Counted from the first letter of the stretch, positions 33,138 to 51,326 are shown. The stretch is 64,000 nucleotides of DNA from a phage (GCA_025677605.1 GCA_025677605.1_4110.1), one strand, 5' to 3'. Notes: a model not told the origin generated them from the sequence alone. A program made the numbers and translations.

Positions 33138-33200
33138 GAGGGAGAACCATTTCCCCCCTCTCTATGTAAAACATTATACACTTTACTAAGTACTATGCAA
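33138..33200 (-). promoter_or_regulatory. sigma70-type promoter plus leader hairpin
   Basis: -35 TTGCAT 33195..33200; 16 bp; -10 TATAAT 33173..33178; hairpin about 33138..33160. Confidence 0.65.
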
Positions 33201-33207
33201 GTACTTT

Positions 33208-33540
33208 TTACATTTTAATACCTGGATTCAGGTAGCGGTGAGATCCATATTCTGGATCGGTTTCGGTCCAGTACTGTAAATCGATAGTACCTTTAGCGTT
33301 AATCTTGTCTACCAGCTTATTCATCTTAGCGTATACTACGTCCGCATCGATGCGTTTAAAGCCAGTAGCTTTAGTGTAGTAGTAGTGATTTGCTTCACTA
33401 TCATTGAGGATATACCGAGCACCGTTTGCAGTTTGTGCGATAATGATTGAGTATTCTACTTCCCGATCCAGCCCGTCAATGAATACAGATGAAACATTGG
33501 TACGGATGAAAGCGTTTACGATAGCGATTGAAGTACTCAT
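33208..33540 (-). CDS. Hypothetical protein
   Basis: 110-aa ORF; GGAG SD. Confidence 0.6.
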   Translation of the reverse strand: MSTSIAIVNAFIRTNVSSVFIDGLDREVEYSIIIAQTANGARYILNDSEANHYYYTKATGFKRIDADVVYAKMNKLVDKINAKGTIDLQYWTETDPEYGSHRYLNPGIKM

Positions 33541-33593
33541 TTTGAATCTCCTAACTTTGTGGACCGTCGCACCATTGCCGCCCTACGAGATAC

Positions 33594-33622
33594 ATTATTG
33601 CAGTACTGCTATACTTTGTCAA
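33594..33622 (-). promoter_or_regulatory. sigma70-type promoter
   Basis: -35 TTGACA 33617..33622; 17 bp; -10 AATAAT 33594..33599. Confidence 0.55.
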
Positions 33623-33647
33623 TAGTTTTTTATTAATAGTTTTCACT

Positions 33648-33655
33648 CCACCAGC
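33648..33655 (-). other. Chi octamer (GCTGGTGG on minus strand)
   Basis: Plus strand reads CCACCAGC; intergenic. Confidence 0.8.
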
Positions 33656-33734
33656 AGATAGTTACTCACCGTTATTAACTATATATTTTAGATACACCTA
33701 TGCACCCGGTGGGCTAGTTTTTGTCTATGCGTAT

Positions 33735-33767
33735 ATAATAGCAAAGGGACTGACCGGAGTCAATCCC
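33735..33767 (-). promoter_or_regulatory. R-module copy 1: terminator hairpin with embedded promoter
   Basis: Hairpin GGGACTGAC / GTCAATCCC 33746..33767; -35 TTGACT 33758..33763; 17 bp; -10 TATTAT 33735..33740; conserved core 33699..33717. Confidence 0.5.
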
Positions 33768-33785
33768 TTTTTTTATTCTTTTTTG

Positions 33786-33986
33786 TTAGATGATCTTCCA
33801 ATCTTCCACGATCATTGTAAGATACCGAACCATCGATTCGAGTGATTCGAATTCACGATAATCTGTCGCCCCACCAGCGGTACAAGTACAGCCGATTAAG
33901 CCGGATTGTAGTTCCTGGATCTTTACGTCGATCAGGTTAGCTTTAGCATCTTTCAGTACTTCAACCAGGGCGATAGCGATAGACAT
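33786..33986 (-). CDS. Hypothetical small protein
   Basis: 66-aa ORF with its own promoter and hairpin; contains a Chi site. Confidence 0.55.
   Translation of the reverse strand: MSIAIALVEVLKDAKANLIDVKIQELQSGLIGCTCTAGGATDYREFESLESMVRYLTMIVEDWKII
33871..33878 (-). other. Chi octamer (minus strand)
   Basis: Plus strand reads CCACCAGC; inside a CDS. Confidence 0.8.
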
Positions 33987-34008
33987 AATGTTTTACTCCA
34001 AACTATTG

Positions 34009-34069
34009 GCGGGAGAACTATTCCCCCGCTCTATGTAAAACATTATACACTATATGATAGTACTGTCAA
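34009..34069 (-). promoter_or_regulatory. sigma70-type promoter plus leader hairpin
   Basis: -35 TTGACA 34064..34069; 16 bp; -10 TATAAT 34042..34047; hairpin GCGGGAGAA / TTCCCCCGC 34009..34029. Confidence 0.65.
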
Positions 34070-34075
34070 ATAGTT

Positions 34076-34333
34076 TTATGAGATATCCTCGATATAGTCG
34101 GCCCATTTCATTTTTTCAGTACTGTCAAGTGCAATCGGATTGTTAGGATCAAACCATTCACCATTACCGCAATACATCCCCACGGCAACGGTTTTATATC
34201 CATCCTGGGCCGTATTCCATGCAAGGCCACGATAGATACGGCCTTTAACTGGTTGCAGTACTGGTAACGTTTTATGGTCTTCTACGTAGGCCATAGCTTG
34301 AGGATTTACCCGATATTGTGTGAATTGTTCCAT
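34076..34333 (-). CDS. Hypothetical small protein (paralog of 34416..34682)
   Basis: Track ORF trimmed to MEQFTQYRV; the extension MFCIGEISSP is a translation of the promoter and hairpin. Confidence 0.6.
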   Translation of the reverse strand: MEQFTQYRVNPQAMAYVEDHKTLPVLQPVKGRIYRGLAWNTAQDGYKTVAVGMYCGNGEWFDPNNPIALDSTEKMKWADYIEDIS

Positions 34334-34355
34334 GATGTTTCCCCTTTTAATATTG

Positions 34356-34410
34356 GGGGAGGATATCTCCCCTATGCAAAACATTATACACTATCAGTTA
34401 GTACTGTCAA
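34356..34410 (-). promoter_or_regulatory. sigma70-type promoter plus leader hairpin
   Basis: -35 TTGACA 34405..34410; 16 bp; -10 TATAAT 34383..34388; hairpin 34356..34372. Confidence 0.65.
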
Positions 34411-34415
34411 TACTA

Positions 34416-34682
34416 TCAATTAAATTTAGGATGTATTTCAATGTAGTCACAATAAGGAAAATATTCAATATAACGCGTAGTGATTGGATGTAACGGATCG
34501 GACCATACACCGTCACCCTCATAGCGTGCTATTGGGCCTTTTAAGTACTTTTGTTGTTTCCTTGACCAGTATATGGATTGATAGACTACACCAACGGCAG
34601 GAACAACGAGCGGGAGCATAGAGTGATCTAATACAACGGATTGATAATTTTTATTATAGCGATATGTTGTTTTCTTTTTCAT
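34416..34682 (-). CDS. Hypothetical small protein (paralog of 34076..34333)
   Basis: 88 aa; shares the pattern ..LP..P..G..Y....W......Y......Y.G.G.W.DP..PI. Confidence 0.6.
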   Translation of the reverse strand: MKKKTTYRYNKNYQSVVLDHSMLPLVVPAVGVVYQSIYWSRKQQKYLKGPIARYEGDGVWSDPLHPITTRYIEYFPYCDYIEIHPKFN

Positions 34683-34734
34683 TGTTAACCTATTATAGAA
34701 ATTATTAAGGGGATATTATCATCCCCTTTTATTG

Positions 34735-34959
34735 TTATACTAGATTATTTAATCCTCTTATGGTTGATGCTTTTTCTTCTTTCTCCCATTGGCGGTAATA
34801 CTTCCATGCTTCGTGATAGGTGGCGATCAGTTTATCTTTCTCTTCCTGGGGGCTATTCAGGAATGTATCCCGATAATCAGTACTATAGATTACATCGAAT
34901 GGTTTTTTCTCAAAGGCCAGGTCTGCAACTACTGATTCAAGTACTTCGTATGTGGTCAT
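34735..34959 (-). CDS. Hypothetical small protein
   Basis: 74-aa ORF. Confidence 0.55.
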   Translation of the reverse strand: MTTYEVLESVVADLAFEKKPFDVIYSTDYRDTFLNSPQEEKDKLIATYHEAWKYYRQWEKEEKASTIRGLNNLV

Positions 34960-34977
34960 GATATTACACCTTTTAGT

Positions 34978-35034
34978 GGGGGAGGATATCTCCCCCTATG
35001 CAAAACATTATACTTTGTTTTACTTACTATGCAA
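34978..35034 (-). promoter_or_regulatory. sigma70-type promoter plus leader hairpin
   Basis: -35 TTGCAT 35029..35034 (overlaps the stop of the upstream gene); 16 bp; -10 TATAAT 35007..35012; hairpin 34978..34996. Confidence 0.65.
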
Positions 35035-35290
35035 GTACTTTTTTCATATAAAGGTTATATTCTACACCGCCGTAACCTTCTACGATGATATGTTTTGCGT
35101 TATCACGTTTGCACATAGTGAAACCGTTGTTGATGTGTTCTGCATTTTCCAGGGATACATCACCGATAGCGGCACATACAGCACTTATAACAGTATTCCG
35201 CAAAGTACTGGTATCGTTAGCGGTCATAGTAGTTTGCAGTACTACGTTGTCGTATACGTGTGCATTGATAGTGATTTCGATAGTGTTCAT
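35027..35290 (-). CDS. Hypothetical small protein
   Basis: 87-aa ORF; GGAG SD. Confidence 0.6.
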   Translation of the reverse strand: MNTIEITINAHVYDNVVLQTTMTANDTSTLRNTVISAVCAAIGDVSLENAEHINNGFTMCKRDNAKHIIVEGYGGVEYNLYMKKVLA

Positions 35291-35308
35291 GGTGTATCTC
35301 CTGGACTT

Positions 35309-35369
35309 GAGGGGAAACCATTTCCCCTCTCGATATAAAACATTATACGTTAATCTAACTACAATGCAA
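35309..35369 (-). promoter_or_regulatory. sigma70-type promoter plus leader hairpin
   Basis: -35 TTGCAT 35364..35369; 16 bp; -10 TATAAT 35342..35347; hairpin GAGGGGAAA / TTTCCCCTC 35309..35329. Confidence 0.65.
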
Positions 35370-35376
35370 GTACTTT

Positions 35377-35568
35377 TTAAATTTTATTTCCGATATAGTC
35401 CGGCCTATTCTTTTCAGTCATACGCTTTGCTAATGTTTGTATATGGCTTATCGCGTTTAAGGTGTCTTCCTCCAGGGATGAATCAACATAATCAGGATCA
35501 TTCTTAACCTTGCAATGATTATGATAGCGTAGTACTGCAAGTACTTTTTTAACTTCTTCAACTGTCAT
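35377..35568 (-). CDS. Hypothetical small protein
   Basis: 63-aa ORF; ATGA coupling to 35565..35837. Confidence 0.55.
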   Translation of the reverse strand: MTVEEVKKVLAVLRYHNHCKVKNDPDYVDSSLEEDTLNAISHIQTLAKRMTEKNRPDYIGNKI

Positions 35569-35837
35569 AATAAGTATTCCACTTCGTTAGCTTTCAGGTT
35601 AGTATCAATCATTAGTGGATTTTTGTAGTCCACAAAACGTTTAGTTTTCTCGATAGCGAAGCCCATATAATCCATCTTGCTTACAGTGCATTCATTCTTA
35701 AAAACTTCTTTCGCTGCATTGATGGCTGATTCCATTGATAACCGACCATCTAAGTTAATATTTCCAAATGATCCACCAGCAGAAGTAGGATTACCGTTCA
35801 TATCTTTAATGATCATAGTAGCGGAGTAGCTAGACAT
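35565..35837 (-). CDS. Hypothetical small protein
   Basis: 90-aa ORF; contains a Chi site. Confidence 0.6.
   Translation of the reverse strand: MSSYSATMIIKDMNGNPTSAGGSFGNINLDGRLSMESAINAAKEVFKNECTVSKMDYMGFAIEKTKRFVDYKNPLMIDTNLKANEVEYLL
35773..35780 (-). other. Chi octamer (minus strand)
   Basis: Plus strand reads CCACCAGC; inside a CDS. Confidence 0.8.
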
Positions 35838-35859
35838 AATTTTGTTTCCTTTTATTGGT

Positions 35860-35918
35860 GGGGAGAACTATTCTCCCCTTGATGTAAACTATTATACAGT
35901 ACTGATATACTTTGTCAA
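35860..35918 (-). promoter_or_regulatory. sigma70-type promoter plus leader hairpin
   Basis: -35 TTGACA 35913..35918; 16 bp; -10 TATAAT 35891..35896 (TG-extended); hairpin GGGGAGAA / TTCTCCCC 35860..35878. Confidence 0.7.
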
Positions 35919-35924
35919 GTACTT

Positions 35925-36329
35925 TTATTCGCCCATATAGATTAGATTATCATCGCCCACATAGGGATCGCAAACGTTGATTTCTTCGCAGTACTTAGTG
36001 AATACATCGTCATAGTGACCGATATCACGATCCCAAAAGCCAGTACCGTGACCTTCGCGAGTAAGAAAGAGATCATGACCTGCATGATTATAAGTATAAT
36101 CAGGATTATGGTGTTTTTGTACTGCTTCCATTTCATTACTAAACTTTTCAAGGAAACGAGAACATGCAATCACCGCCGCTTGATGGGCTTGCTCTGATAA
36201 TTCGTAATCTTCCAGGTAGTCGCCGTTCTCATTGTGTACAGTACTGAATTGCATAGCTTCAATGTAACCAGCGACCATAGCAGCATGATTTTTATCGTTG
36301 GCGATGTTCCGGGCTTGATTAGTAGTCAT
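35925..36329 (-). CDS. Hypothetical protein
   Basis: 134-aa ORF. Confidence 0.6.
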   Translation of the reverse strand: MTTNQARNIANDKNHAAMVAGYIEAMQFSTVHNENGDYLEDYELSEQAHQAAVIACSRFLEKFSNEMEAVQKHHNPDYTYNHAGHDLFLTREGHGTGFWDRDIGHYDDVFTKYCEEINVCDPYVGDDNLIYMGE

Positions 36330-36348
36330 GATTTTATTCCTTTGTGCT

Positions 36349-36407
36349 GGGGAGAACTATTCTCCCCTTGATGAAAACTATTATACAGTACTAAGATACT
36401 TTGTCAA
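36349..36407 (-). promoter_or_regulatory. sigma70-type promoter plus leader hairpin
   Basis: -35 TTGACA 36402..36407; 16 bp; -10 TATAAT 36380..36385; hairpin 36349..36367. Confidence 0.7.
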
Positions 36408-36410
36408 TAC

Positions 36411-36632
36411 TTAATTACGTTTAAAATGATATGTGCCTTTATCATCCTGTACGCCCCATACTGATTTACCATCAACACCAGTGAAGCCGGATTGTAATTC
36501 AATATGGAAACCATTATTATCAACTACAAAAACTTTTTTATTTTCATCCCGATAACATTGATATTCTGAATCAACATTAAAGGCCGCATCATTCAGAAGA
36601 TTGGAAGCGTAAATGCAAGTCATTGTAGTCAT
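36411..36632 (-). CDS. Hypothetical small protein
   Basis: Track ORF 36411..36707 trimmed to MTTMTCIY; the extension covers the hairpin and promoter. Confidence 0.55.
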   Translation of the reverse strand: MTTMTCIYASNLLNDAAFNVDSEYQCYRDENKKVFVVDNNGFHIELQSGFTGVDGKSVWGVQDDKGTYHFKRN

Positions 36633-36651
36633 GATTTTATTCCTTATTACC

Positions 36652-36712
36652 AGGGAGAACCGTTCCCCCCTCTCGATATAAAACATTATACTTGATTCTA
36701 AGTACAATGCAA
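36652..36712 (-). promoter_or_regulatory. sigma70-type promoter plus leader hairpin
   Basis: -35 TTGCAT 36707..36712; 16 bp; -10 TATAAT 36685..36690; hairpin 36652..36671. Confidence 0.65.
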
Positions 36713-36807
36713 GTACTTTTTAAAAATAGTTTTCAGTACTGACAATACTTATATTATAGATACACTTATGCACCCTATGGGTCAGTGAGTTATCTCTCAA
36801 TGACTAT

Positions 36808-36840
36808 ATAATAGCAAAGGGACTGACTGGAGTCAATCCC
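36808..36840 (-). promoter_or_regulatory. R-module copy 2: terminator hairpin with embedded promoter
   Basis: Hairpin 36819..36840; -35 TTGACT 36831..36836; 17 bp; -10 TATTAT 36808..36813; core 36768..36785. Confidence 0.5.
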
Positions 36841-36854
36841 TTTTTTAATCTTTT

Positions 36855-37439
36855 TTATCGTGTTATAGTTACGGCTTTTACGTCGCGTTGTTTATAGTAC
36901 TGATTCCAGATATTGCGGGTTAAACCGTAATCAAGTACTTTAATCAGGCCATTGCGATCTTGGCCTATGTTCTGCTTTCTGATATCTCTTATCGTTAGTG
37001 TTGATAAGGTATCATCAACGTGTTGTAGTGCATCAGCGAAATGGTGTTGGCGTTCAATAGTGTTACGTTTGACATTGTACTTTAATTCATTGCAAGCGTT
37101 AACGTGCTTTACACTGCCTTTGCTTGCAGTACTCAAACGATCCATAACAATAAACATATTATCAGGATCGCTTAAATGCATATGCACCTTAGCAAAGTAC
37201 TGTTTAAGGTGAGGGCGGTCATAATCTAAAAAATTCCATACCTTACATTCTGTTTCATTTTGTTCTACGCCAGCGTCACAATTAGCGACCTTAATCACTA
37301 ACCGATCATTTAAAGCGAATACGATACGGGATGATCCGGCCCCGATGATCTCCAGACCAGCCAACCGACAAGCTGTAAGGATCTCTTTGTTAGTTTCCAT
37401 TTCTGCCAGTGTACGGATGAATTTAGTATAATTACGCAT
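36855..37439 (-). CDS. Small protein kinase-like protein (Ser/Thr kinase fold)
   Basis: 194 aa. Gly-loop GAGSSRIVF; VIKVA (VAIK-like Lys); catalytic-loop-like IRDIRKQN; KVLDYG (DFG-like). Confidence 0.6.
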   Translation of the reverse strand: MRNYTKFIRTLAEMETNKEILTACRLAGLEIIGAGSSRIVFALNDRLVIKVANCDAGVEQNETECKVWNFLDYDRPHLKQYFAKVHMHLSDPDNMFIVMDRLSTASKGSVKHVNACNELKYNVKRNTIERQHHFADALQHVDDTLSTLTIRDIRKQNIGQDRNGLIKVLDYGLTRNIWNQYYKQRDVKAVTITR

Positions 37440-37459
37440 TGCATTTACTCTTTAAGATA

Positions 37460-37519
37460 GCAGGGAGGTATTCCCTGCCTTGATGTGACTATTATATGTT
37501 AGTACTAATTAGATTGCAA
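37460..37519 (-). promoter_or_regulatory. sigma70-type promoter plus leader hairpin
   Basis: -35 TTGCAA 37514..37519; 17 bp; -10 TATAAT 37491..37496; hairpin GCAGGGA / TCCCTGC 37460..37478. Confidence 0.6.
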
Positions 37520-37736
37520 CAGTTTTATTTGCAATTACAGAATGAATTGCGGTTTTACCTGATTTAGTACTGAATACATTAGCACGACCATTTTCAATAG
37601 TGATGCGGTATTCACCTTTACTATCAATGAGGTTGATAAATTCAGGAGTACTAAACCGAGTTACTTTAAAAGTCAGTACATTGAGTAGGTCCACCAGCGT
37701 AGTAGTTTCTTTGATGCGTTCTAAGATATTAATCAT
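37509..37736 (-). CDS. Hypothetical small protein
   Basis: 75-aa ORF; contains a Chi site. Confidence 0.55.
   Translation of the reverse strand: MINILERIKETTTLVDLLNVLTFKVTRFSTPEFINLIDSKGEYRITIENGRANVFSTKSGKTAIHSVIANKTVAI
37691..37698 (-). other. Chi octamer (minus strand)
   Basis: Plus strand reads CCACCAGC; inside a CDS. Confidence 0.8.
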
Positions 37737-37765
37737 TTTGTTTCTCCCCGTGTTGGTATAGATAC

Positions 37766-37794
37766 ATAGTACTAAAACAATTGAGTACTGTCAA
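37766..37794 (-). promoter_or_regulatory. sigma70-type promoter (repeat copy 1)
   Basis: -35 TTGACA 37789..37794; 17 bp; -10 TACTAT 37766..37771; about 58 bp nearly identical to 38011..38070. Confidence 0.6.
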
Positions 37795-38013
37795 TTAGAT
37801 AATTGCATATTTCTTTAAAGATAATGCGTCTTGTGTTGGCTGATACTCGATACCGTTACCGTTATCTACTTTAACTAATAAACCTTTGTCAATTAGTTTT
37901 TTAATAGTCCGTTGGCCTTGTTGAAAATTGGTAAAATGTGAATCATTACGAAAGGTATAACCGTGCTTAACTGCTTCATCAATAGTTTTCTTTTCGATTT
38001 TAGATAATTTCAT
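37795..38013 (-). CDS. Hypothetical small protein, possible winged-helix DNA binder
   Basis: Track ORF trimmed to MKLSKIEKK (the extension covers the promoter). The wHTH suggestion rests only on a ..TIKKLIDKGLLVKV.. helix-strand pattern. Confidence 0.45.
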   Translation of the reverse strand: MKLSKIEKKTIDEAVKHGYTFRNDSHFTNFQQGQRTIKKLIDKGLLVKVDNGNGIEYQPTQDALSLKKYAII

Positions 38014-38041
38014 TTTGTTTCTCCCGTGTTGGTATAGATAC

Positions 38042-38070
38042 ATAGTACTAAAACAATTGAGTACTGTCAA
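38042..38070 (-). promoter_or_regulatory. sigma70-type promoter (repeat copy 2)
   Basis: -35 TTGACA 38065..38070; 17 bp; -10 TACTAT 38042..38047. Confidence 0.6.
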
Positions 38071-38321
38071 CGTGATATTAGTTTTATTTTCTTATTATAT
38101 TGTTGGTGTTCATATAGGTTTATCTTTCCTGTATTCTCGATTACTATTCTGTTGTTGGTGTCCACGTCGATTACACGCAGTTTGCCGTTGCTTAACTTCC
38201 TGGGCAATAGATTACCATTAATAAACTCATTAGCAAGCTGTACGGCCTTTGTGATGATTCTCTGTGGTGCTTTATAGTGTACCCGCAAGATATTATCTTT
38301 TGATAGTTGAACCTTAATCAT
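38067..38321 (-). CDS. Hypothetical small protein
   Basis: 84-aa ORF. Confidence 0.55.
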   Translation of the reverse strand: MIKVQLSKDNILRVHYKAPQRIITKAVQLANEFINGNLLPRKLSNGKLRVIDVDTNNRIVIENTGKINLYEHQQYNKKIKLISR

Positions 38322-38335
38322 TTTAGTTTATCCTA

Positions 38336-38361
38336 TAAAAAAGGCGGGAACTGATCCCGCC
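38336..38361 (-). terminator. Rho-independent terminator
   Basis: Minus-strand hairpin GGCGGGA-UCAGU-UCCCGCC followed by UUUUUUAU. Confidence 0.7.
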
Positions 38362-38383
38362 GTGTTGTTAGTACTGCAAGTTA

Positions 38384-38788
38384 TTAGATAACCTGGCGGC
38401 GTTTACTGTATACGGTAACACGGTTTCCCTTACGGTCATGACGGATCTCTCGTTTGTTGCGAATCAGTTCACTTGGACGCTTCAGGTTTACCAGGTGATC
38501 CGCGTGAGTCCATGCATTCGAATTTACCTGTACTTTAATATCAGAACCAGCGATAAATTCATCTTGAGCGTTAAGTACTGCTGACAGTTCATCAGCTTTC
38601 TTCTGTTCTGCTGCTGTCAGTACTGGCTCCGGTGAATTCACAATATCAGAGATTTCTTTGAACTGTACGGCCCAGCGTTGACCTTTCGGTGCGGTCGTGC
38701 CCATGTCTTTAAATGCTGCTCCTTCCTCGCGTGCAACAATACGGGCAGCTTCACGGGTAGCGTAGAATTTAGTAATCATGGTATACAT
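38384..38788 (-). CDS. Hypothetical protein (paralog of 50198..50464)
   Basis: 134 aa; shares FYATREAAR..GA.FKDMG...G.RWAV and C-terminal HDRKGNRVTVYS. Confidence 0.6.
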   Translation of the reverse strand: MYTMITKFYATREAARIVAREEGAAFKDMGTTAPKGQRWAVQFKEISDIVNSPEPVLTAAEQKKADELSAVLNAQDEFIAGSDIKVQVNSNAWTHADHLVNLKRPSELIRNKREIRHDRKGNRVTVYSKRRQVI

Positions 38789-46073: not shown

Positions 46074-46117
46074 CTTTATATCCTCAGTTAGTTAAGGTGT
46101 CTCGCCTTGATGAAATT

Positions 46118-46145
46118 AATTATACGCTAATCTCTTAATCGTGCA
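46118..46145 (-). promoter_or_regulatory. sigma70-type promoter
   Basis: -35 TTGCAC 46140..46145; 16 bp; -10 TATAAT 46118..46123. Confidence 0.6.
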
Positions 46146-46211
46146 AGTACTTTTTATTAGTTTTTGCAAAATACTTTAAACGCCCGCAATCGCATTCTAA
46201 CGACCTTAACG

Positions 46212-46219
46212 CCACCAGC
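46212..46219 (-). other. Chi octamer (minus strand)
   Basis: Plus strand reads CCACCAGC; intergenic, inside a 9-bp-stem inverted repeat (ATTCTAACG / CGTTAGAAT). Confidence 0.8.
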
Positions 46220-46299
46220 TAGGGCGATGCATCAGATAATCAGTTTAATGCGTTAGAATCGATTCTAGGCGGTGCTGGGGGCATGGTAAACGATAAACA

Positions 46300-46327
46300 C
46301 AAAAAAGCCCACTGTTTAAGGTGGGCT
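46300..46327 (-). terminator. Rho-independent terminator
   Basis: AGCCCAC-8 nt-GTGGGCT followed by UUUUUU on the minus strand; near-identical copy at 47030..47058. Confidence 0.7.
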
Positions 46328-46348
46328 AGTGATTCAGTACTTTAATTG

Positions 46349-46831
46349 TTATGCTTCAACTTTGCGATGAGCTTCGATCCATTCCTCGCGAGTCAATCCG
46401 CTTTCTTTGATAGCATCCAGTACTACGGCAATGCAGTTACCGCGTACTGGTACAGTGTATTCCTCGCCATTATCCAGAACTACCGGCACGCGTTCCTGAA
46501 TCCATTTTTTAGCTTTTACTTCTGGCTTGTCTTCCCCGTATTTCGCTGCCAGGGCTTTACGTGCCATTTCGGTTACTACTTCCAGATCAAGCCCAGCGAC
46601 GGCGGCGTTAATATCTTCAATCGTTTTCTGCAATTCAGCTTCGCGTGCTGCCTTCTCAGCTTCAAGTGCCGCCGCTTTATTAGCTTGTAGTTCTTTCGCT
46701 TCGCTGTACGCAATGTTAAAATTGTTGCGTACTGCTTTCATGGTATCGCTATCCAGTTCAGCCAGGATCTCAGCCGCTACGTTAGTTTCATTTGCTACCA
46801 GTGCTTTGATGAATGATTTTACATTAGCCAT
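46349..46831 (-). CDS. Ala/Glu/Lys-rich helical protein, unknown function
   Basis: Track ORF trimmed to MANVKSFIK (GAGGA SD); coiled-coil-like AAALEAEKAAREAELQK; locally higher GC. Confidence 0.6.
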   Translation of the reverse strand: MANVKSFIKALVANETNVAAEILAELDSDTMKAVRNNFNIAYSEAKELQANKAAALEAEKAAREAELQKTIEDINAAVAGLDLEVVTEMARKALAAKYGEDKPEVKAKKWIQERVPVVLDNGEEYTVPVRGNCIAVVLDAIKESGLTREEWIEAHRKVEA

Positions 46832-46954
46832 TATATAATTCCTCAATTAAAGTTTAGTTTACGTTTATTAGTGTATCAAAGTTTTCTTGACGTGTCCAGT
46901 TTTTCGTTCGACTTACTGGCGGTCTACTTAGTGTTCCCCGTCTTGATGTAATAC

Positions 46955-46982
46955 ATTCTACGCTTTTCTTCGGTAATGTCAA
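46955..46982 (-). promoter_or_regulatory. sigma70-type promoter with long leader
   Basis: -35 TTGACA 46977..46982; 16 bp; -10 TAGAAT 46955..46960; the leader is related to 39893..39975. Confidence 0.5.
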
Positions 46983-47029
46983 CTACTTTTTTAAAACTAT
47001 TTTCAAAGTATCTCAGTACTACACCACTA

Positions 47030-47058
47030 CAAAAAAAGCCCACTGTTTAAGGTGGGCT
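47030..47058 (-). terminator. Rho-independent terminator
   Basis: AGCCCAC-8 nt-GTGGGCT followed by UUUUUUU on the minus strand. Confidence 0.7.
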
Positions 47059-47075
47059 ATTGATTCAGTACTAGA

Positions 47076-47375
47076 TTATAAACAGTTAATTACTCCTGTG
47101 TGCGTTACTTTCTCAGTATCCATAACCGTGACCGAACCGCGTTTTTTCTTCGCATCATAATAAATTGTTGTGCTACCTTTCGCATCTTCTTCATGGAACG
47201 GGCCATTTTTAAATGCTTCTGGCTGTAATTCCAGATCCTTTAAAACAATCTCGCCAGTACTTTCATCGGTCATTGCTACGGTGCACTGAATGAATTTATC
47301 ACCAGGTACATCTAACGACGCATTAACAGCGAAAGAGGAAACAGATAAAGCCAGGGCGATGATTGCTACTTTCAT
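47076..47375 (-). CDS. Secreted/periplasmic small protein (signal peptide)
   Basis: 99 aa; MKVAIIALALSVSSFAVNA followed by a mature domain. Confidence 0.6.
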   Translation of the reverse strand: MKVAIIALALSVSSFAVNASLDVPGDKFIQCTVAMTDESTGEIVLKDLELQPEAFKNGPFHEEDAKGSTTIYYDAKKKRGSVTVMDTEKVTHTGVINCL

Positions 47376-47394
47376 TTGATTATCCTTAGTTACC

Positions 47395-47455
47395 AGGGGA
47401 ACCGTTCCCCCCCTTGCTATGTAAAATATTATACAGTACTAAAAACTAATTGCAA
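47395..47455 (-). promoter_or_regulatory. sigma70-type promoter plus leader hairpin
   Basis: -35 TTGCAA 47450..47455; 16 bp; -10 TATAAT 47428..47433; hairpin 47395..47413. Confidence 0.65.
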
Positions 47456-47460
47456 GTACT

Positions 47461-47697
47461 TTATGATTTTTTATAAAACATTTCGGCAGTGATATTTTTA
47501 CCCGTTGGTTGTACTTTATCCAGGATTTTTTGATGCCCGGACCGTCCAAATGAATATGATCCGTAAACCGTAAACCAGTAGTTACCCTCAGTGTTTACAT
47601 GTACAGCACAATAGGGAACGCCCCGCGATTCATCACTAGTAAAGTGTGCTACCGTTCCCGTTACATTCGAAGACGTTGATTTGATTTGTTCGACCAT
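47461..47697 (-). CDS. Hypothetical small protein
   Basis: 78-aa ORF. Confidence 0.55.
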   Translation of the reverse strand: MVEQIKSTSSNVTGTVAHFTSDESRGVPYCAVHVNTEGNYWFTVYGSYSFGRSGHQKILDKVQPTGKNITAEMFYKKS

Positions 47698-47718
47698 TTT
47701 CTTATTCCTTAGTTACCA

Positions 47719-47772
47719 GGGGAACCGCTCCCCCTATGCAAAACATTATACGCGTTTAAAAACTATTAGCAA
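47719..47772 (-). promoter_or_regulatory. sigma70-type promoter plus leader hairpin
   Basis: -35 TTGCTA 47767..47772; 16 bp; -10 TATAAT 47745..47750; hairpin 47719..47735. Confidence 0.6.
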
Positions 47773-47805
47773 GTATTTTAATAAAAAGTATTTGAAAAAT
47801 AGTTC

Positions 47806-47834
47806 TTGACAACTGCATCCAATACTGGCATAAT
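47806..47834 (+). promoter_or_regulatory. sigma70-type promoter on the opposite (plus) strand
   Basis: -35 TTGACA 47806..47811; 17 bp; -10 CATAAT 47829..47834; no ORF downstream. Confidence 0.6.
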
Positions 47835-47840
47835 TACTAC

Positions 47841-47947
47841 ATAAAGACAAAACAGTCTCTAACCCACCGGGTGCATAGATCCGTCTATTAAATGATTCAG
47901 TACTGAAAAAAGAAAGGGGATCAATTGATCCCCTCGTTGTTATTTTG
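47841..47947 (+). ncRNA. Candidate small RNA carrying the R-module conserved core
   Basis: Lies between the plus promoter and the hairpin AGGGGATCA / TGATCCCCT (47915..47934) plus a U-rich tail. Contains AGAC-loop-GTCT and the core CTAACCCACCGGGTGCATAG. Confidence 0.3.
47905..47934 (-). terminator. Bidirectional terminator
   Basis: Same hairpin as above, followed on the minus strand by UUUCUUUUUU; directly downstream of the stop of 47940..48161. Confidence 0.65.
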
Positions 47948-48161
47948 TAAGGTATAAACAGAAGTCACCTTTATTTGCTACGCCGCCAGTGTAACGCGAT
48001 GAATAGTTAGAAACGTCCTGGACTTCTGCTATTACCAGTGTATCATCATTCAATTCGTCGCAGAAGCAAACGGCTGGATCTTTTACGCCGATATTGTCGG
48101 CATGTTCCCGCATAGATTTAACCAGTGCTTCAAGTTGGGAAAGGGTAGTAATGTTAGCCAT
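47940..48161 (-). CDS. Hypothetical small protein
   Basis: Track ORF 47940..48191 trimmed to MANITTLSQ; the extension covers the hairpin. Confidence 0.55.
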   Translation of the reverse strand: MANITTLSQLEALVKSMREHADNIGVKDPAVCFCDELNDDTLVIAEVQDVSNYSSRYTGGVANKGDFCLYLTK

Positions 48162-48180
48162 TTTATTTTCCTCATTACCA

Positions 48181-48239
48181 GGGAGAACCATTTCTCCCCT
48201 CTATGTAAACCATTATACAGTACTAAAAACTAATTGCAA
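48181..48239 (-). promoter_or_regulatory. sigma70-type promoter plus leader hairpin
   Basis: -35 TTGCAA 48234..48239; 16 bp; -10 TATAAT 48212..48217; hairpin 48181..48199. Confidence 0.65.
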
Positions 48240-48246
48240 GTACTTT

Positions 48247-48450
48247 TTAATTTAATTGCTTAAAAACATACTCAAAGACACGACGCACATCATTGATCAT
48301 CGCCTGGCGGTTAGCAGGTAACGCATCAGGATCGCCACTATCCCAGGCATTGATAAAACTCCCCAAATCATGATAGATTTTATTCTGTAAGCCGATTAAC
48401 TGCAATTCTTTTTCTTCAAGCTCTTTGATACGTTCAATTAAATCACTCAT
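48247..48450 (-). CDS. Hypothetical small helical protein
   Basis: Track ORF 48247..48486 trimmed to MSDLIERIK (AAGGA SD; avoids overlap with the upstream CDS). Confidence 0.55.
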   Translation of the reverse strand: MSDLIERIKELEEKELQLIGLQNKIYHDLGSFINAWDSGDPDALPANRQAMINDVRRVFEYVFKQLN

Positions 48451-48467
48451 TATATAATCCTTAGTAC

Positions 48468-48752
48468 TTAACTGTAAGATCCGCAACGGTCGCAGTAGTG
48501 CCCGTCCTCGTCATCGTCAACGAATTGACCGACGAAATGATCTACTTTCGCTTTCAGGTTATTATAATCGTTTTCTACTTCCTTTAAACGCTTCTGGTAG
48601 TATTCCAGTGCTTTAAGATATGCCGCATCAGCAGTTTTCTCCTGCATAGCTAAATTCATGCCACGCGTTTCATCGTACAGCCAAAAACCATCGGTGCACT
48701 GGCTAATAGATAATGACTTGCTTAGTACTGTATAGTTAATTACTTTGCTCAT
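48468..48752 (-). CDS. Hypothetical small protein
   Basis: 94-aa ORF. Confidence 0.55.
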   Translation of the reverse strand: MSKVINYTVLSKSLSISQCTDGFWLYDETRGMNLAMQEKTADAAYLKALEYYQKRLKEVENDYNNLKAKVDHFVGQFVDDDEDGHYCDRCGSYS

Positions 48753-48770
48753 TAGATAATCCTCAGTAAA

Positions 48771-48830
48771 GGCGGGAACTATTCCCCGCCTCGATATAAA
48801 GTATTATACGTTAATCTAACTACAATGCAA
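48771..48830 (-). promoter_or_regulatory. sigma70-type promoter plus leader hairpin
   Basis: -35 TTGCAT 48825..48830; 16 bp; -10 TATAAT 48803..48808; hairpin GGCGGGAA / TTCCCCGCC 48771..48790. Confidence 0.65.
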
Positions 48831-48837
48831 GTACTTT

Positions 48838-49110
48838 TTAGTTTTTTAATTCTTTTACTGCATCAGGTGCGACAGAACCATCAATGTATTGAACATCGTT
48901 TTCAACTTCACGGGCGGCATCATTCAGCAGATCAAAATTAAATTCCATTTCTTCCAGATCATCAAAATCAGGCTCATAACCATTAATTGTTGAATAAGTC
49001 CAAGTACCTTTTTCATAAGTCACGACACTTACATCAGGGAAGAAATCTTGCACATGATCCATTGCATCCCGAACCAGTTGATGTGCAGTTGTGATATTTA
49101 AAGTTTTCAT
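48838..49110 (-). CDS. Hypothetical acidic small protein
   Basis: 90-aa ORF. Confidence 0.55.
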   Translation of the reverse strand: MKTLNITTAHQLVRDAMDHVQDFFPDVSVVTYEKGTWTYSTINGYEPDFDDLEEMEFNFDLLNDAAREVENDVQYIDGSVAPDAVKELKN

Positions 49111-49131
49111 TTTGTTACCCTTTTAGTGTGA

Positions 49132-49191
49132 GCGGGGAACCACTCCCCGCCTCGATATAAAGTATTATACGCTTTTAAACTTAGTATGCAA
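49132..49191 (-). promoter_or_regulatory. sigma70-type promoter plus leader hairpin
   Basis: -35 TTGCAT 49186..49191; 16 bp; -10 TATAAT 49164..49169; hairpin 49132..49150. Confidence 0.65.
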
Positions 49192-49203
49192 GTACTTTTT
49201 AAA

Positions 49204-49878
49204 TTAATATTCGATTGATTCTACTACGCCATCAATAACATTGAATTGATATTCGTTACCCTCAATCAGTGCCGTAATGTTTTCAGTAGTGAATTGATCC
49301 TCATATGCATTCTCTAAATCACGGTACAACTTGCGGGATAATTCACGAATAGTTTCAGTGAGTAGTTCCTCAAGCTCATTAACTAACGCTTCTTGTTTTG
49401 CGGTTAAATCAGTGTAAGCCGATTCAATGTACCCGCTTACAGTGTTTTCATGCGAGTAGTTGGAGTGAGAACGCTTTACACTCATTGCCAAATCATCTTC
49501 ATTCAGCAGGTGACGGATTGAGCGATACTTAGTTAATGCTCTAACCTTGCGTAAAAACTTCTCAGCGTCAACGTGGTCAGTACTAATTGATGCACCGTCA
49601 CCCTGCGACCAAAAACCACTGAATTGTATTTCAGCGTCATTAATGCCATATTCCGGTAGTACTGTTTCTTTATAGTATTCAATTTCACTTTCAGAAAAAT
49701 AATCGTCGTTTAAGTTTTTTTCACGTTCCCGAACCAGTTCGATAGCTGACGTTTGTTGTTCTGCGTTCAATTCAGAAAAATCCATAACGAAAGTAGTATT
49801 AGTGACAGTTTTCGCTTTGCAACCCTCATTCAATTCAGAAAAATCCATAACGAAAGTAGTAGTAGTGATAGTTTTCAT
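49204..49878 (-). CDS. Acidic protein with duplicated N-terminus, unknown function
   Basis: 224 aa. TTFVMDFSELN occurs twice, encoded by a 66-bp-spaced direct DNA repeat at about 49745..49878. Motif FSGFWSQGDGAS. Confidence 0.6.
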   Translation of the reverse strand: MKTITTTTFVMDFSELNEGCKAKTVTNTTFVMDFSELNAEQQTSAIELVREREKNLNDDYFSESEIEYYKETVLPEYGINDAEIQFSGFWSQGDGASISTDHVDAEKFLRKVRALTKYRSIRHLLNEDDLAMSVKRSHSNYSHENTVSGYIESAYTDLTAKQEALVNELEELLTETIRELSRKLYRDLENAYEDQFTTENITALIEGNEYQFNVIDGVVESIEY

Positions 49879-49910
49879 TTTGTAACTCTCATTCAGTAGT
49901 TGATGTAAGT

Positions 49911-49938
49911 ATTATACGCTTTTAAAAACAATTGTCAA
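49911..49938 (-). promoter_or_regulatory. sigma70-type promoter (proximal of a tandem pair)
   Basis: -35 TTGACA 49933..49938; 16 bp; -10 TATAAT 49911..49916. Confidence 0.6.
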
Positions 49939-50028
49939 ACTATTTTATCAGGGGAGTTTTTCGTGTGCCTTACTCCTGGGCTACTTAACGGGGAGTTACT
50001 TATTTCGTTCCCCGTCCTGATGTAAAAC

Positions 50029-50056
50029 ATTATACGCCTTTAAACATAGTTTGCAA
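50029..50056 (-). promoter_or_regulatory. sigma70-type promoter (distal of a tandem pair)
   Basis: -35 TTGCAA 50051..50056; 16 bp; -10 TATAAT 50029..50034. Confidence 0.6.
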
Positions 50057-50149
50057 GTACTTTTTATCAAATAGTTTTCAGTACTGGCATTGTACTTAAT
50101 CACTTTACTATAGATACACTTCCGCACCCTATGGGCTATCGCCTTGTGT

Positions 50150-50191
50150 CCGGCTTGTAAGTATTATCTCACTAAGCCGGATAATGGTCAA
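50150..50191 (-). promoter_or_regulatory. R-module copy 5: hairpin with embedded promoter
   Basis: Stem CCGGCTT 50150..50156 / AAGCCGG 50174..50180; -35 TTGACC 50186..50191; 17 bp; -10 GATAAT 50163..50168; core about 50121..50139. Confidence 0.4.
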
Positions 50192-50197
50192 GTACTT

Positions 50198-50464
50198 TTA
50201 TTCAAGTACTGCAATCTTTTTAGTACTGTACACGGTAACACGGTTTCCCTTGCGGTCGTGCTTTATTTCTACCACTCGACGCGATACACTATCAGGACTT
50301 TTTAACGCCGCTAACCAGTACTGAATTGATCGGGCTGTACTTTGCTTTACTACGGCCCAACGTTTACCCCTGGCTGATTGTACGCCCATATCTTTAAACG
50401 TTGCACCGTCAACCTTTGCCGCTTGCCGAGCTTGTTCACGCGTCGCAAAGTATATAATATTCAT
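50198..50464 (-). CDS. Hypothetical protein (paralog of 38384..38788)
   Basis: Track ORF 50198..50518 trimmed to MNIIYFATREQ; shares the FATRE..R..A...GA.FKDMG and HDRKGNRVTVYS blocks. Confidence 0.6.
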   Translation of the reverse strand: MNIIYFATREQARQAAKVDGATFKDMGVQSARGKRWAVVKQSTARSIQYWLAALKSPDSVSRRVVEIKHDRKGNRVTVYSTKKIAVLE

Positions 50465-50546
50465 GCTGTTACCCCTATCGTTGTTGTATAAAAGAAATCT
50501 ATTATAAAGTACTATCACCGTGCAATAGTACTTTTAATCTATTCTC

Positions 50547-50786
50547 TTACATGCCAACCATTGCAGCACGGATCGCAGTAGTGCTATACTTGAATCCGTC
50601 CGGTGTTTTATCTTGTCCAGTCTGTTCTAAAAATAGCATCATATGACGGGCCGCATCATTTCGATTAGTGTTAGCGGCAATAAAGTCCAGGGCCAACCGG
50701 TATAATGATTCATCGTTATTAATCCAAAGGCTTACATTCCATTGAGTTTTGTTTTTGTGACCTAAGAACATTTTTGATTTAGCCAT
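50547..50786 (-). CDS. Hypothetical small protein
   Basis: 79-aa ORF. Confidence 0.55.
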   Translation of the reverse strand: MAKSKMFLGHKNKTQWNVSLWINNDESLYRLALDFIAANTNRNDAARHMMLFLEQTGQDKTPDGFKYSTTAIRAAMVGM

Positions 50787-50807
50787 TTTTAAATCCTCTT
50801 AATTATA

Positions 50808-50866
50808 GTGGGGAACTATTCCCCACCGGATAGAAAGTATTATACATTAATCTAATTACTTTGCAA
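50808..50866 (-). promoter_or_regulatory. sigma70-type promoter plus leader hairpin
   Basis: -35 TTGCAA 50861..50866; 16 bp; -10 TATAAT 50839..50844; hairpin GTGGGGAA / TTCCCCAC 50808..50826. Confidence 0.65.
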
Positions 50867-50879
50867 GTACTTTTTTAAC

Positions 50880-51242
50880 TTATTCGTAAATCTTGCCACT
50901 GTCAGCCCATACCAGGAAACGAGGCATATTATCCCATGCATCTTGTTTTAAGTTTAAGCCGTGCAATACTTCGGTACTTTCCATCCCAGGCACTGGTTTA
51001 CTATACACCGCAAATAGTTCGCCCATGTACTGATAAGCCATCGTTAAATCACTGGCAATCATCTTGTGGATCATCGCATCAAGCATCACAGTAGCGGCGT
51101 ATTGTTCACGCTTAAGCGGCAACATTGCAATCAATTCCCGATAAGCTGATATATGAATCTTTACAGTCTCAGCCGGAAGATCTTTCATCTCTTCGCGAAA
51201 GTTAACCAGGTTAGCAATGATTTTAGTGATTTGAGTCGCCAT
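50880..51242 (-). CDS. Hypothetical protein
   Basis: 120-aa ORF. Confidence 0.6.
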   Translation of the reverse strand: MATQITKIIANLVNFREEMKDLPAETVKIHISAYRELIAMLPLKREQYAATVMLDAMIHKMIASDLTMAYQYMGELFAVYSKPVPGMESTEVLHGLNLKQDAWDNMPRFLVWADSGKIYE

Positions 51243-51298
51243 CGTTTTAATTCCTATTAAAGTGAGTTAGGAGCGTTTCCCCCGTCTCGATGTAAAAC

Positions 51299-51326
51299 AT
51301 TATACGCCCTTAAACATAGTATGCAA
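51299..51326 (-). promoter_or_regulatory. sigma70-type promoter
   Basis: -35 TTGCAT 51321..51326; 16 bp; -10 TATAAT 51299..51304. Confidence 0.6.

Follow-up and report, generated by a model that had tools for sequence, protein, structure and literature searches.

A repeated promoter and leader-hairpin module before tiny genes in the probable terminal repeat of an Asteriusvirus phage

We have analysed a stretch of 64,000 nucleotides (nt) of phage DNA (GCA_025677605.1 GCA_025677605.1_4110.1; hereafter the window), in which the minus strand between positions 33,115 and 51,340 carries 26 clean copies and one degenerate copy of a module of about 95 bp that sets a near-consensus promoter and a short leader hairpin before tiny genes. 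These copies, obtained by a promoter scan with anchoring on the -10 hexamer, bear out an original prediction for the same DNA, namely that a promoter-hairpin unit precedes the small genes of this region. The module is real and is confined to the homologue of a terminal repeat. In the overall explanation that we propose, it serves as a cassette for early expression and for gene shuffling similar to the PeSL (promoter-early stem-loop) linkers of T4-like phages, and carries a stem that stabilises or buffers the mRNA; we give this explanation as a whole an even chance of being right. Its cassette and shuffling part is very probable, and the specific role of the hairpin as a stabiliser is put forward tentatively, as somewhat short of an even bet. 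The homology to a terminal repeat, the use of the modules as swap junctions and the PeSLs as the closest precedent are all absent from the original prediction.

Each module (named below by its hairpin position) reads, in order, an A-tract, which is present upstream of the promoter in all of them, a -35 hexamer (TTGACA, TTGCAA or TTGCAT), a spacer of 16 nt, TATAAT, the segment (g/a)TTTTACAT, a hairpin of 6-10 bp in the form GGGG(A)…(U)CCCC, a Shine-Dalgarno (SD) sequence and the ATG. The promoters are of the sigma-70 type and stand before individual genes, as had been predicted: TATAAT is perfect in 26 of 26, and one of the three -35 hexamers is found in 23 of 26, the others being TTGCTA, TAGACA and the TTGCAA of module 37479, which is best read with a 17-nt spacer and is the only one to depart from 16 nt. 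The hairpin starts 8-14 nt past the -10 (mode 12); between its stem and the ATG lie 13-26 nt, which include the SD. In every copy the G-rich (purine) arm lies 5', and the loops differ in sequence as well as in length (3-8 nt; UAG, AUGG, AUGA, GUU, CUU, ACAUC and others); folding of the hairpins gives a mean of -13.4 kcal/mol (z about -2.1). The same loci were returned by an independent hairpin-first scan, the promoter core was recovered as a 30-copy family in a repeat search, and two further variants have long loops (Table 1).

Some details of the element as first described have had to be revised. The TG said to extend many of the -10 hexamers abuts the hexamer (TGTATAAT) and is not in the TGnTATAAT register, and the promoter scan scores 'no' for every hairpin module; AGTACTG, described as usual in the spacer, is present in about half of the modules; and the supposed plus-strand copy at 52460 is a different unit, with its hairpin 35 nt after the -10. 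The false N-terminal extensions attributed to the module do occur, as the ATG within TATAATG is in frame with the gene at 33117 and gives a 152-amino-acid (aa) open reading frame (ORF) at 32716-33174. The repeated units are also real, with 88-96% identity between 39192-39300 and 39463-39570 and 81% between 37747-37826 and 38023-38102. The latter pair (promoter units 37737-37794 and 38014-38070, minus strand) has a TACTAT -10 and no hairpin. In these two units the actual SD is GGGGAGAA (or GGGAGAA), and the 5' arm of the leader hairpin is therefore SD-like.

A megablast search with 37-42 kb of the window found only jumbo coliphages of the genus Asteriusvirus, with identities of 96% for Escherichia phage A4 and 88-93% for 121Q, phAPEC6, CRJP21 and UE-S1, and on these matches the window is assigned to an Asteriusvirus jumbo phage of E. 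coli. The matches to Asteriusvirus genomes are split into 3-8 pieces each, which hints at many indels. In the relative fEgEco12, PhageTerm analysis and restriction digests have defined a direct terminal repeat of 20,993 bp (PMC13070987). Window position 53480 aligns with fEgEco12 position 54, and 32369 with 20902; the ~50 bp with which fEgEco12 begins match window ~53,480-53,530, and the physical genome end of a relative therefore maps there. The genes g01-g056 within the fEgEco12 repeat are separated from their neighbours by ~90 bp and the genes past the repeat overlap by a few bases, and the same change from spaced to overlapping genes is seen in the window at about 32.3 kb. Furthermore, the matching region is annotated 'Direct Terminal Repeats' in vB_Ec-M-J, and is a PhageTerm-predicted terminal repeat in Klebsiella phage Muenster. 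The genes of the block encode proteins of 29-134 aa, with one of 194 aa, and have almost no family matches: a Pfam scan of ten larger proteins gave just a NUMOD4 motif and a weak kinase-like match.

The modules are far more numerous in this block than chance would allow. Composites of a promoter and a G/C hairpin 6-17 nt after the -10 were found 26 times on its minus strand and once on its plus strand, and the remaining 42.8 kb of the window has none on either strand; when the block is shuffled with its dinucleotides kept, 0.05 composites arise on average and 1 at most. Building a covariance model from the copies and searching a whole genome with it, as the original prediction had suggested, gave a concordant picture. 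With filters off, the model built from the 26 copies has no match at E < 1e-4 outside 33.1-51.3 kb of the window, and in the complete 352-kb EC22.5-2 genome 33 of its 34 matches lie at 30,105-50,199, in the homologue of the repeat, a range that starts 350 bp past the point aligned with fEgEco12 position 1; the single match outside is a promoter without a hairpin. Therefore, the module is a feature of the terminal repeat, as defined by homology, and occurs nowhere else in the genome.

The comparison with fEgEco12 also shows where the block has been rearranged. Eleven of the 24 ends of synteny blocks are in a module or within 8 nt of one, the modules covering ~13% of the block, and the indels are whole genes: 1,243 bp in fEgEco12 (g028-g031) correspond to 51 bp in the window, a 349-bp gene (g033) is inserted exactly at module 40896, and 885 bp are replaced by 188 bp between modules 49151 and 48199. 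As a BLAST query the module finds 9-11 places in genomes deposited with one copy of the repeat and 20-22 in those deposited with two. Outside the genus, modules occur in the Vequintavirinae phages A73 and W70, in Phapecoctavirus nepoznato and muut, in Klebsiella RaK2-like phages and in an Erwinia jumbo phage, and in Klebsiella phage Muenster they lie within its predicted terminal repeat; the 51 records with a module match are all Escherichia, Klebsiella, Salmonella or Erwinia phages. A73 (OP778609.1, 74.6-76.2 kb) has at least four genes and 2-3 modules homologous to scattered parts of the repeat, and its units homologous to window 45.9-45.4, 42.06-41.77, 50.80-50.55 and 42.40-42.18 kb adjoin in that changed order, which points to a recent cross-family transfer of a multi-cassette block. 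These alignments show the modules to be the junctions where gene cassettes enter, drop out and change order, among relatives and from one phage family to another. A scan of the collection with TGTATAATNNTTTACAT was discarded as too unspecific, with 120 mostly single chance matches in unrelated viral contigs, among which only RaK2 was relevant.

The closest precedent for such an element is the PeSLs of RB49/phi1 and other T4-like phages, which are conserved linkers, made up of a promoter and a stem-loop, where small genes enter, leave or are swapped (PMC2839356, PMC4122927). Like the PeSLs described for the pairs RB49/phi1, PST/T4 and nt-1/KVP40, which are units of ~70-100 bp between small ORFan genes in hyperplastic regions, the modules combine an AT-rich tract, a strong sigma-70-type promoter (in the modules, by sequence match only), a stem-loop of a G-tract and a C-tract, an SD and an ATG, and they mark the edges of the stretches where close relatives have gained, lost or replaced genes. 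On the other hand, the stem-loop of a PeSL is upstream of the promoter, between its hexamers or over them, and is described as a terminator, whereas the hairpin of the module is ~5 nt downstream of the likely start, in its own mRNA, and lacks a U-tract. The phage carrying the modules also belongs to a different lineage, and its cassettes fill a terminal repeat. In a sensitive blastn search of the module against 50,697 phage records, RB49, phi1 and JSE were not among the matches listed. The element fits the PeSL concept in its anatomy and evolutionary behaviour; it departs from the PeSLs in the feature behind their proposed function, namely a terminator stem-loop outside the transcript of the cassette itself, and is without sequence relatedness to the RB49 elements. 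In the literature found for 121Q, PBECO4, phAPEC6, RaK2, CBB, fEgEco12, Sharanji and rV5, leader hairpins are not described; the CBB paper reports RpoD-like promoters with UP-like elements clustered in the early region and the terminal repeat, and the other genome papers checked do not discuss promoters.

Several lines of evidence indicate that selection keeps the stem paired and in one polarity, the purine arm coming first, and the compensatory variants noted in the original prediction have stood up well in this respect. When arms were swapped between copies, cognate arms paired at -13.15 kcal/mol and non-cognate arms at -11.05 kcal/mol (permutation p < 1e-4; p = 5e-4 with the 14 distinct stems only). 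When 28 window copies are aligned to the model, pairing is found in 93.8% of cells, as against 84.6% in shuffles, and none of 500 shuffles reaches the former value; both-sided changes are found in 5 of 8 pairs, and slid controls are much lower. For 52 matches from fEgEco12, RaK2, A73 and nepoznato, sequences that had not been used in building the model, compensatory changes occur in all 8 pairs (62 cells, with 14.3 expected), and the covariation score is 0.416 versus 0.165, again not attained in 500 shuffles, although all these alignments are structure-fitted and the copies related, so that the numbers overstate independence. The clearest evidence for pairing, of a qualitative kind, is that of Klebsiella phage RaK2, which belongs to another genus: it keeps the architecture TTGACA-N16-TATAAT-gtattacATCAAA-hairpin-SD with different stems (GGGGATACA/TGTATCCCT, GGGAATGAA/TTCATTCCC, AGGAGGT/ACCTCCT and GGGGCAA/TTGCCCC), which have only the GGG...CCC base in common with those of the coliphages. 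Within the window, the weakened stem of module 43532 has a fEgEco12 orthologue with the full GGGGAGAA/TTCTCCCC stem.

Over 48 orthologous module pairs, divergence is 0.3% in the -10 hexamer, 3.4% in the 3' arm, 4.5% in the -35 hexamer and 7.2% in the 5' arm, compared with 7.7% in coding DNA, 12.4% in the spacer and 15.1% in the loop; thus, the loop is the fastest-evolving segment of the module, and the 3' arm is among the slowest and shows the highest conservation within the stem. G.U pairs exceed A.C mismatches by 10:2 under symmetric scoring in four genomes with common orthologues, and by 12:0 on stems chosen by RNAfold, a choice that is biased. A strand-specific constraint acting on the RNA is likely but not proven from these counts. 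Alignment of whole modules with MAFFT and RNAalifold left the stems misaligned, with a consensus of -2.2 kcal/mol that has no meaning, and per-copy folding, the arm-swap test and the covariance-model-fitted alignments were used in its place. The sole Rfam match at E <= 1 is a chance-level Trp_leader outside the modules (23.5 bits against a gathering score of 41).

The position of the hairpin in the transcript can be estimated from the T7 A1 promoter, whose annotated start is 7 nt past the -10 and whose transcript reads AUCGAGAGGG. The modules have the same geometry of TATAAT, 7 nt and A, with a conserved ACAT; two of them (36671 and 35329) are identical to T7 A1 over these first ten transcribed bases, and the leader is structured in both systems. 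They differ in that T7 A1 is one promoter before a long operon cut by RNase III and the modules are repeated gene by gene. By this analogy, transcription would start at the A of ACAT and the stem would begin at about +6, leaving a predicted unpaired 5' tail of 0-6 nt (mode 5).

We propose that E. coli RNA polymerase would fire all the module promoters right after entry of the DNA, and that the hairpin would act as a 5'-proximal structural element of the mRNA, giving the short early messages a longer or more equal life and output whatever ORF they carry. It might do so by holding back RppH and RNase E, whose attack depends on the 5' end, and, where transcription has read through from the cassette before, by capping that upstream message at its 3' end; the ~95 bp of common sequence could in addition supply the homology for cassette shuffling. 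Precedents are the stabilising 5'-terminal stem-loops of ompA (hp1) and papA and the leader of T7 gene 10, all of them short stable hairpins near the 5' end of highly expressed messages. In the T7 phi10 leader the stem (GGGAGACC/GGUUUCCC) has its purine arm first, in the same way as GGGGAGAA/UUCUCCCC, and this leader (GGGAGACC...GGUUUCCC) folds from its 5' end, as that of T7 A1 also does. The pre-early region of T5 offers a parallel at the level of the genome: it has many very strong sigma-70 promoters and small host-takeover genes in a long direct terminal repeat, and these strong promoters for the host polymerase are on the first DNA to enter the cell. Unlike in T5, a two-step entry of the DNA is not known for Asteriusvirus, and a common leader hairpin is not described for the T5 promoters.

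A number of observations weigh against this account. Neither start-site nor half-life nor expression data for these phages were found in the searchable literature, and the block is taken to be the terminal repeat of the window's own phage by its homology to fEgEco12. In at least four places of the block (49938, 41545, 39892 and 38852) a promoter of this type stands without a hairpin. Of the 36 stem pairs that differ between close orthologues, 20 have lost their pairing without compensation, and hence selection on individual pairs is not strict. A.C cells are not rare in the model-fitted alignments (8, against 19 G.U, in alignment A3; 16 against 16 in alignment A4), and the strand asymmetry can therefore only be called suggestive; for this reason, and for the bias of the 12:0 count, it was dropped as a proof of constraint on the RNA. 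Of the three candidate functions in the original prediction a 5' stabiliser is the best, and it is nevertheless weakened by the ~5 unpaired nt predicted before the stem. Emory et al. are said to have found in 1992 that a protective 5' stem-loop tolerated about 2-4 unpaired nt, a limit that the predicted tail, most often 5 nt, would exceed, and the hairpins of ompA, papA and T7 gene 10 are 0-4 nt from the 5' end. The predicted accessibility of the ribosome-binding site (RBS) changes little with and without the stem (0.63 versus 0.56 and 0.69), so that a translational 'insulator' is weakly supported, and this candidate was rejected, the effects being small and opposite in direction for the two arms. 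Finally, RNase E scanning readily bypasses ordinary stem-loops, so that a hairpin that is not truly terminal should protect little; as an obstacle to such scanning the hairpin was rejected for the same bypass (PMC9943677).

Other explanations of the hairpin have to be weighed against the proposed stabiliser. If the module were a PeSL of the classical kind, the stem-loop would terminate or attenuate transcription arriving from the upstream cassette and thereby isolate each gene. The stem-loop of the RB49/phi1 PeSL did cut expression of a downstream lacZ as strongly as rrnB T1 (PMC2839356), its stems are also built of a G-tract and a C-tract, and the cassette layout and the association with indels are the same here. 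However, a T-run follows none of the 26 hairpins, and a terminator scan of the minus strand flags none of them while finding T-run terminators elsewhere in the block (47935, 47058, 46327, 41323 and 38361); an efficient terminator ~5 nt inside its own transcript would moreover silence its own gene. Judged on these features the leader hairpin is not an intrinsic terminator, and we consider the classical PeSL explanation quite unlikely. The same scan disposes of the many interspersed terminators of the original prediction, about five real ones being present in the block. They were to be crossed by means of a nut/boxB-like antitermination signal, which, or another protein-binding RNA signal, might modify RNA polymerase or recruit a regulator to the early transcripts. 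The conserved position at the start of many transcripts and the GGG...CCC stem base kept across genera would suit such a signal, and the nut site of lambda (boxA plus boxB) is likewise a small hairpin early in the transcript; but the loops of the modules are conserved neither in sequence nor in length, the stems vary in sequence, the block has few terminators that would need reading through, no Rfam family matches, and a boxA-like motif (YGCTCTTWA) is absent from the 64-kb window, all of which makes this explanation very unlikely. Processing by RNase III, another of the predicted functions, has its model in the early transcripts of T7, which this enzyme cuts at hairpins. RNase III needs roughly two helical turns (~20 bp), far more than the 6-10 bp of these stems, and this possibility is extremely improbable.

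The inverted repeat might instead act as DNA, either as a hotspot of recombination or site for a recombination protein, as has been speculated for PeSLs, or as the operator of a phage repressor that shuts the early promoters. Its location at +6 to +25 is typical of an operator, and synteny breakpoints cluster in the modules. Against this, the stems differ between copies, and wholly so between genera, with the pairing kept, which a sequence-specific binder would not tolerate, and loops of 3-8 nt leave the spacing of the half-sites unfixed; since both the stem sequence and the arm spacing vary, a DNA operator is unlikely. The G-rich arm is furthermore always on the sense strand and G.U exceeds A.C by 10:2, and for recombination the homology over the whole ~95 bp suffices, so that we hold the DNA-level explanation in general to be improbable. 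About as improbable is that the arms mimic an SD and an anti-SD, paired to spare the true RBS until cutting of the 5' arm, for instance by a RegB-like GGAG endonuclease, frees the 3' arm to mask the SD and turns the early genes off. The 5' arm GGGGAGAA (AGGAGGT in RaK2) is SD-like and serves as the actual SD in the two hairpin-less genes mentioned above, the 3' arm is an anti-SD-like pyrimidine tract with the highest conservation in the stem, and RBS accessibility falls a little when the 5' arm is deleted in silico (from 0.63 to 0.56, p = 0.008). Yet the predicted effect is small, no RegB-like enzyme was found (none was searched for), and a GGAG within a stable stem is a poor substrate for an enzyme of the T4 RegB kind. 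Along similar lines, the hairpin could be the common handle of a global off-switch for the whole pre-early set, some 30 genes at once, which we regard as a rather slim possibility. In such a switch, the 5' arm would hide an SD-like GGAG and the 3' arm would be anti-SD-like; a factor of the phage or the host would open or cut the 5' arm, upon which the 3' arm would mask the true SD or the 5' end would be open to decay; and each gene would carry the handle along with it, as a mobile expression cassette that crosses phage families.

As for what the modules may be good for, the genomes of Asteriusvirus are annotated as hundreds of 'hypothetical proteins' without regulatory features, and the cassettes supply a predicted promoter and a start codon for each terminal-repeat gene, remove false N-terminal extensions from the gene models and single out the block as probably the immediate-early region for host takeover. 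They would extend the idea behind the PeSLs, that of linkers for the safe swapping of small genes, to another lineage and to unrelated families (Asteriusvirus, Alcyoneusvirus, Vequintavirinae and Stephanstirmvirinae), in a version with the stem-loop moved into the mRNA, where it cannot be the terminator that has been ascribed to PeSLs. For engineering, the module may offer a compact modular expression cassette for E. coli with about 30 natural variants, and a test set for the effects of 5'-proximal hairpins on the fate of mRNA.

Table 1. Modules and related features of the block, in window coordinates; bits are scores against the covariance model built from 26 copies.
Feature	Position	Hairpin 5' end	Strand	Promoter	Stem and loop	Gene	Bits	Remarks
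Whole block	32300..53530		minus					Homologue of the ~21-kb direct terminal repeat of Asteriusvirus; crowded with tiny genes, leftward transcription
Degenerate module	51243..51340		minus	TTGCAT-N16-TATAAT-gttttacatcgaGACGGGGGAAACGCTCC	weak stem		49.9	
Module	50784..50880	50827	minus	TTGCAA-N16-TATAAT	GGTGGGGAA-tag-TTCCCCACT	ATG 50786 (79 aa)	82.1	
Module	49108..49205	49151	minus	TTGCAT-N16-TATAAT	GGCGGGGA(g)-tgg-(t)TCCCCGCT	ATG 49110 (90 aa)	81.1	
Module	48750..48844	48792	minus	TTGCAT-N16-TATAAT	GAGGCGGGGA-atag-TTCCCGCCTT	ATG 48752 (94 aa)	86.3	
Module	48159..48253	48199	minus	TTGCAA-N16-TATAAT	GGGGAGAA-atgg-TTCTCCCT	ATG 48161	96.8	
Module	47695..47786	47736	minus	TTGCTA-N16-TATAAT	TAGGGGGA-gcgg-TTCCCCTG	ATG 47697 (78 aa)	70.9	
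Module	47373..47469	47414	minus	TTGCAA-N16-TATAAT	AGGGGGG-gaacgg-TTCCCCT	ATG 47375 (99 aa)	82.3	
Module	45533..45627	45573	minus	TTGCAA-N16-TATAAT	GGGGAGAA-aatgg-TTCTCCCC	ATG 45535 (47 aa)	80.7	Module and gene common to A73 (Vequintavirinae)
Module	43816..43912	43860	minus	TTGCAA-N16-TATAAT	GAGGGGAAA-ctt-TTTCCCCTT	ATG 43818 (80 aa)	75.2	
Module	43491..43586	43532	minus	TTGCAA-N16-TATAAT	GGGGAG-aaatagta-CTTCCC	ATG 43493 (48 aa)	87.9	Weakened stem
Module	43260..43357	43304	minus	TTGCAA-N16-TATAAT	AGGGGGGGG-aaatgg-TTCTCCCCT	ATG 43262 (50 aa)	91.1	G.U pairs
Module	42482..42577	42522	minus	TTGCAT-N16-TATAAT	AGGGGAAA-ccg-TTTCCCCT	ATG 42484 (113 aa)	79.7	
Module	42045..42142	42088	minus	TTGACA-N16-TATAAT	GGGGAGAA-tag-TTCTCCCC	ATG 42047 (70 aa)	85.5	-13.3 kcal/mol, z -3.2
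Module	41137..41222	41169	minus	TTGACA-N16-TATAAT	AGGGGAA-acatc-TTCCCCT	ATG 41139 (64 aa)	70.1	
Module	40856..40950	40896	minus	TAGACA-N16-TATAAT	GGGGAGAA-atga-TTCTCCCC	ATG 40858 (70 aa)	89.8	
Module	40556..40651	40597	minus	TTGACA-N16-TATAAT	GGGGAGAA-gtt-TTCTCCCC	ATG 40558 (29 aa)	78.0	
Module	39467..39567	39511	minus	TTGACA-N16-TATAAT	GAGGGGAA-tgg-TTCCCCTC	ATG 39469 (60 aa)	73.1	Near-identical twin of 39196..39297
Module	39196..39297	39241	minus	TTGACA-N16-TATAAT	GAGGGGAA-acgg-TTCCCCTC	ATG 39198 (107 aa)	78.8	
Module	37442..37532	37479	minus	TTGCAA-N17-TATAAT	GGCAGGGA-atacc-TCCCTGCT	36855-37439 (194 aa)	50.1	Weak kinase-like match
Module	36630..36726	36671	minus	TTGCAT-N16-TATAAT	AGGGGGGA-acgg-TTCTCCCT	ATG 36632 (73 aa)	88.2	Transcript start ATCGAGAGGGG; two G.U pairs
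Module	36327..36421	36367	minus	TTGACA-N16-TATAAT	GGGGAGAA-tag-TTCTCCCC	ATG 36329 (134 aa)	83.2	
Module	35835..35932	35878	minus	TTGACA-N16-TATAAT	GGGGAGAA-tag-TTCTCCCC	ATG 35837 (90 aa)	89.0	
Module	35288..35383	35329	minus	TTGCAT-N16-TATAAT	GAGGGGAAA-tgg-TTTCCCCTC	ATG 35290 (87 aa)	82.1	
Module	34957..35048	34996	minus	TTGCAT-N16-TATAAT	GGGGGAG-atatc-CTCCCCC	ATG 34959 (74 aa)	72.8	
Module	34331..34424	34372	minus	TTGACA-N16-TATAAT	GGGGAG-atatc-CTCCCC	ATG 34333 (85 aa)	56.8	
Module	33984..34083	34029	minus	TTGACA-N16-TATAAT	GCGGGGGAA-tag-TTCTCCCGC	ATG 33986 (66 aa)	72.7	
Module	33115..33214	33160	minus	TTGCAT-N16-TATAAT	GAGGGGGGA-aatgg-TTCTCCCTC	ATG 33117 (133 aa)	81.3	ORF caller extends gene to 33174 (MFYIERGE...)
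Variant module	39918..40022		minus	module promoter	long-loop ACGGGGA-(12-14 nt)-(C)CCCGT	no ORF	53.8	Then hairpin-less promoter 39865-39892
Twin of variant module	49999-50070		minus				44.8	
Second promoter class	41734-41837, 44996-45099, 45291-45394, also 45884-45912, 33594-33622		minus					

Several other elements of the block were noted alongside the modules. The two long-loop variants belong to 85%-identical units on the minus strand (39830-39947 and 49876-49993), of a type that is also found in phage A73 with 90% conservation; each of the two has a module promoter, a long-loop hairpin ACGGGGA...(C)CCCGT, ~85 nt without an ORF, a second, hairpin-less consensus promoter and a gene. The ends of the ORF-less stretch, AUCAGG...CCUGAU, could pair; in a consensus folding of such units 2 of the 4 sequences belong together, and no conclusion was drawn from it. 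The second promoter class in Table 1, TTGACA-N17-TGnCATAAT (or GATAAT/AATAAT), carries the extended -10 in its canonical register, lacks a leader hairpin and forms a repeat family of its own. A second repeat family has four copies on the minus strand (33689-33784, 36762-36857, 40054-40149 and 42802-42897), in which a 12-bp hairpin AAAGGGATTGAC/GTCAGTCCCTTT overlaps a promoter-like site, TTGACT-N17-TATTAT, and is followed by a conserved CTAGCCCACCGGGTGCAT; this stem-loop over the -35 has the classical PeSL geometry, and a copy is present in RaK2 at about 16380. The family may represent a composite of terminator and promoter, or else a gene for a small RNA.

The NUMOD4 motif mentioned above (E = 4.7e-7) is in a 169-aa ORF at 51535-52044 on the minus strand, which is probably a homing-endonuclease insertion in the terminal repeat, because it sits in a stretch of 612 bp whose fEgEco12 counterpart has 54 bp. 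A tandem duplication of 63 nt in perfect register and with 90% identity (49766-49828 and 49829-49891) overlaps the start of a 224-aa ORF (49204-49878). An iteron-like array of CCATCTAG(C/A) and related 9-11-mers occupies 52590-52760 and 53480-53530. The 8-bp palindrome CAGTACTG is present in 58 copies, with 0.8 expected, over all 64 kb including coding DNA (for example at 95-102, 14897-14930 and 52831-53551), and is dense in the non-coding 51.3-53.6 kb; AGTACT is also frequent within the promoter spacers and immediately before the -35 boxes.

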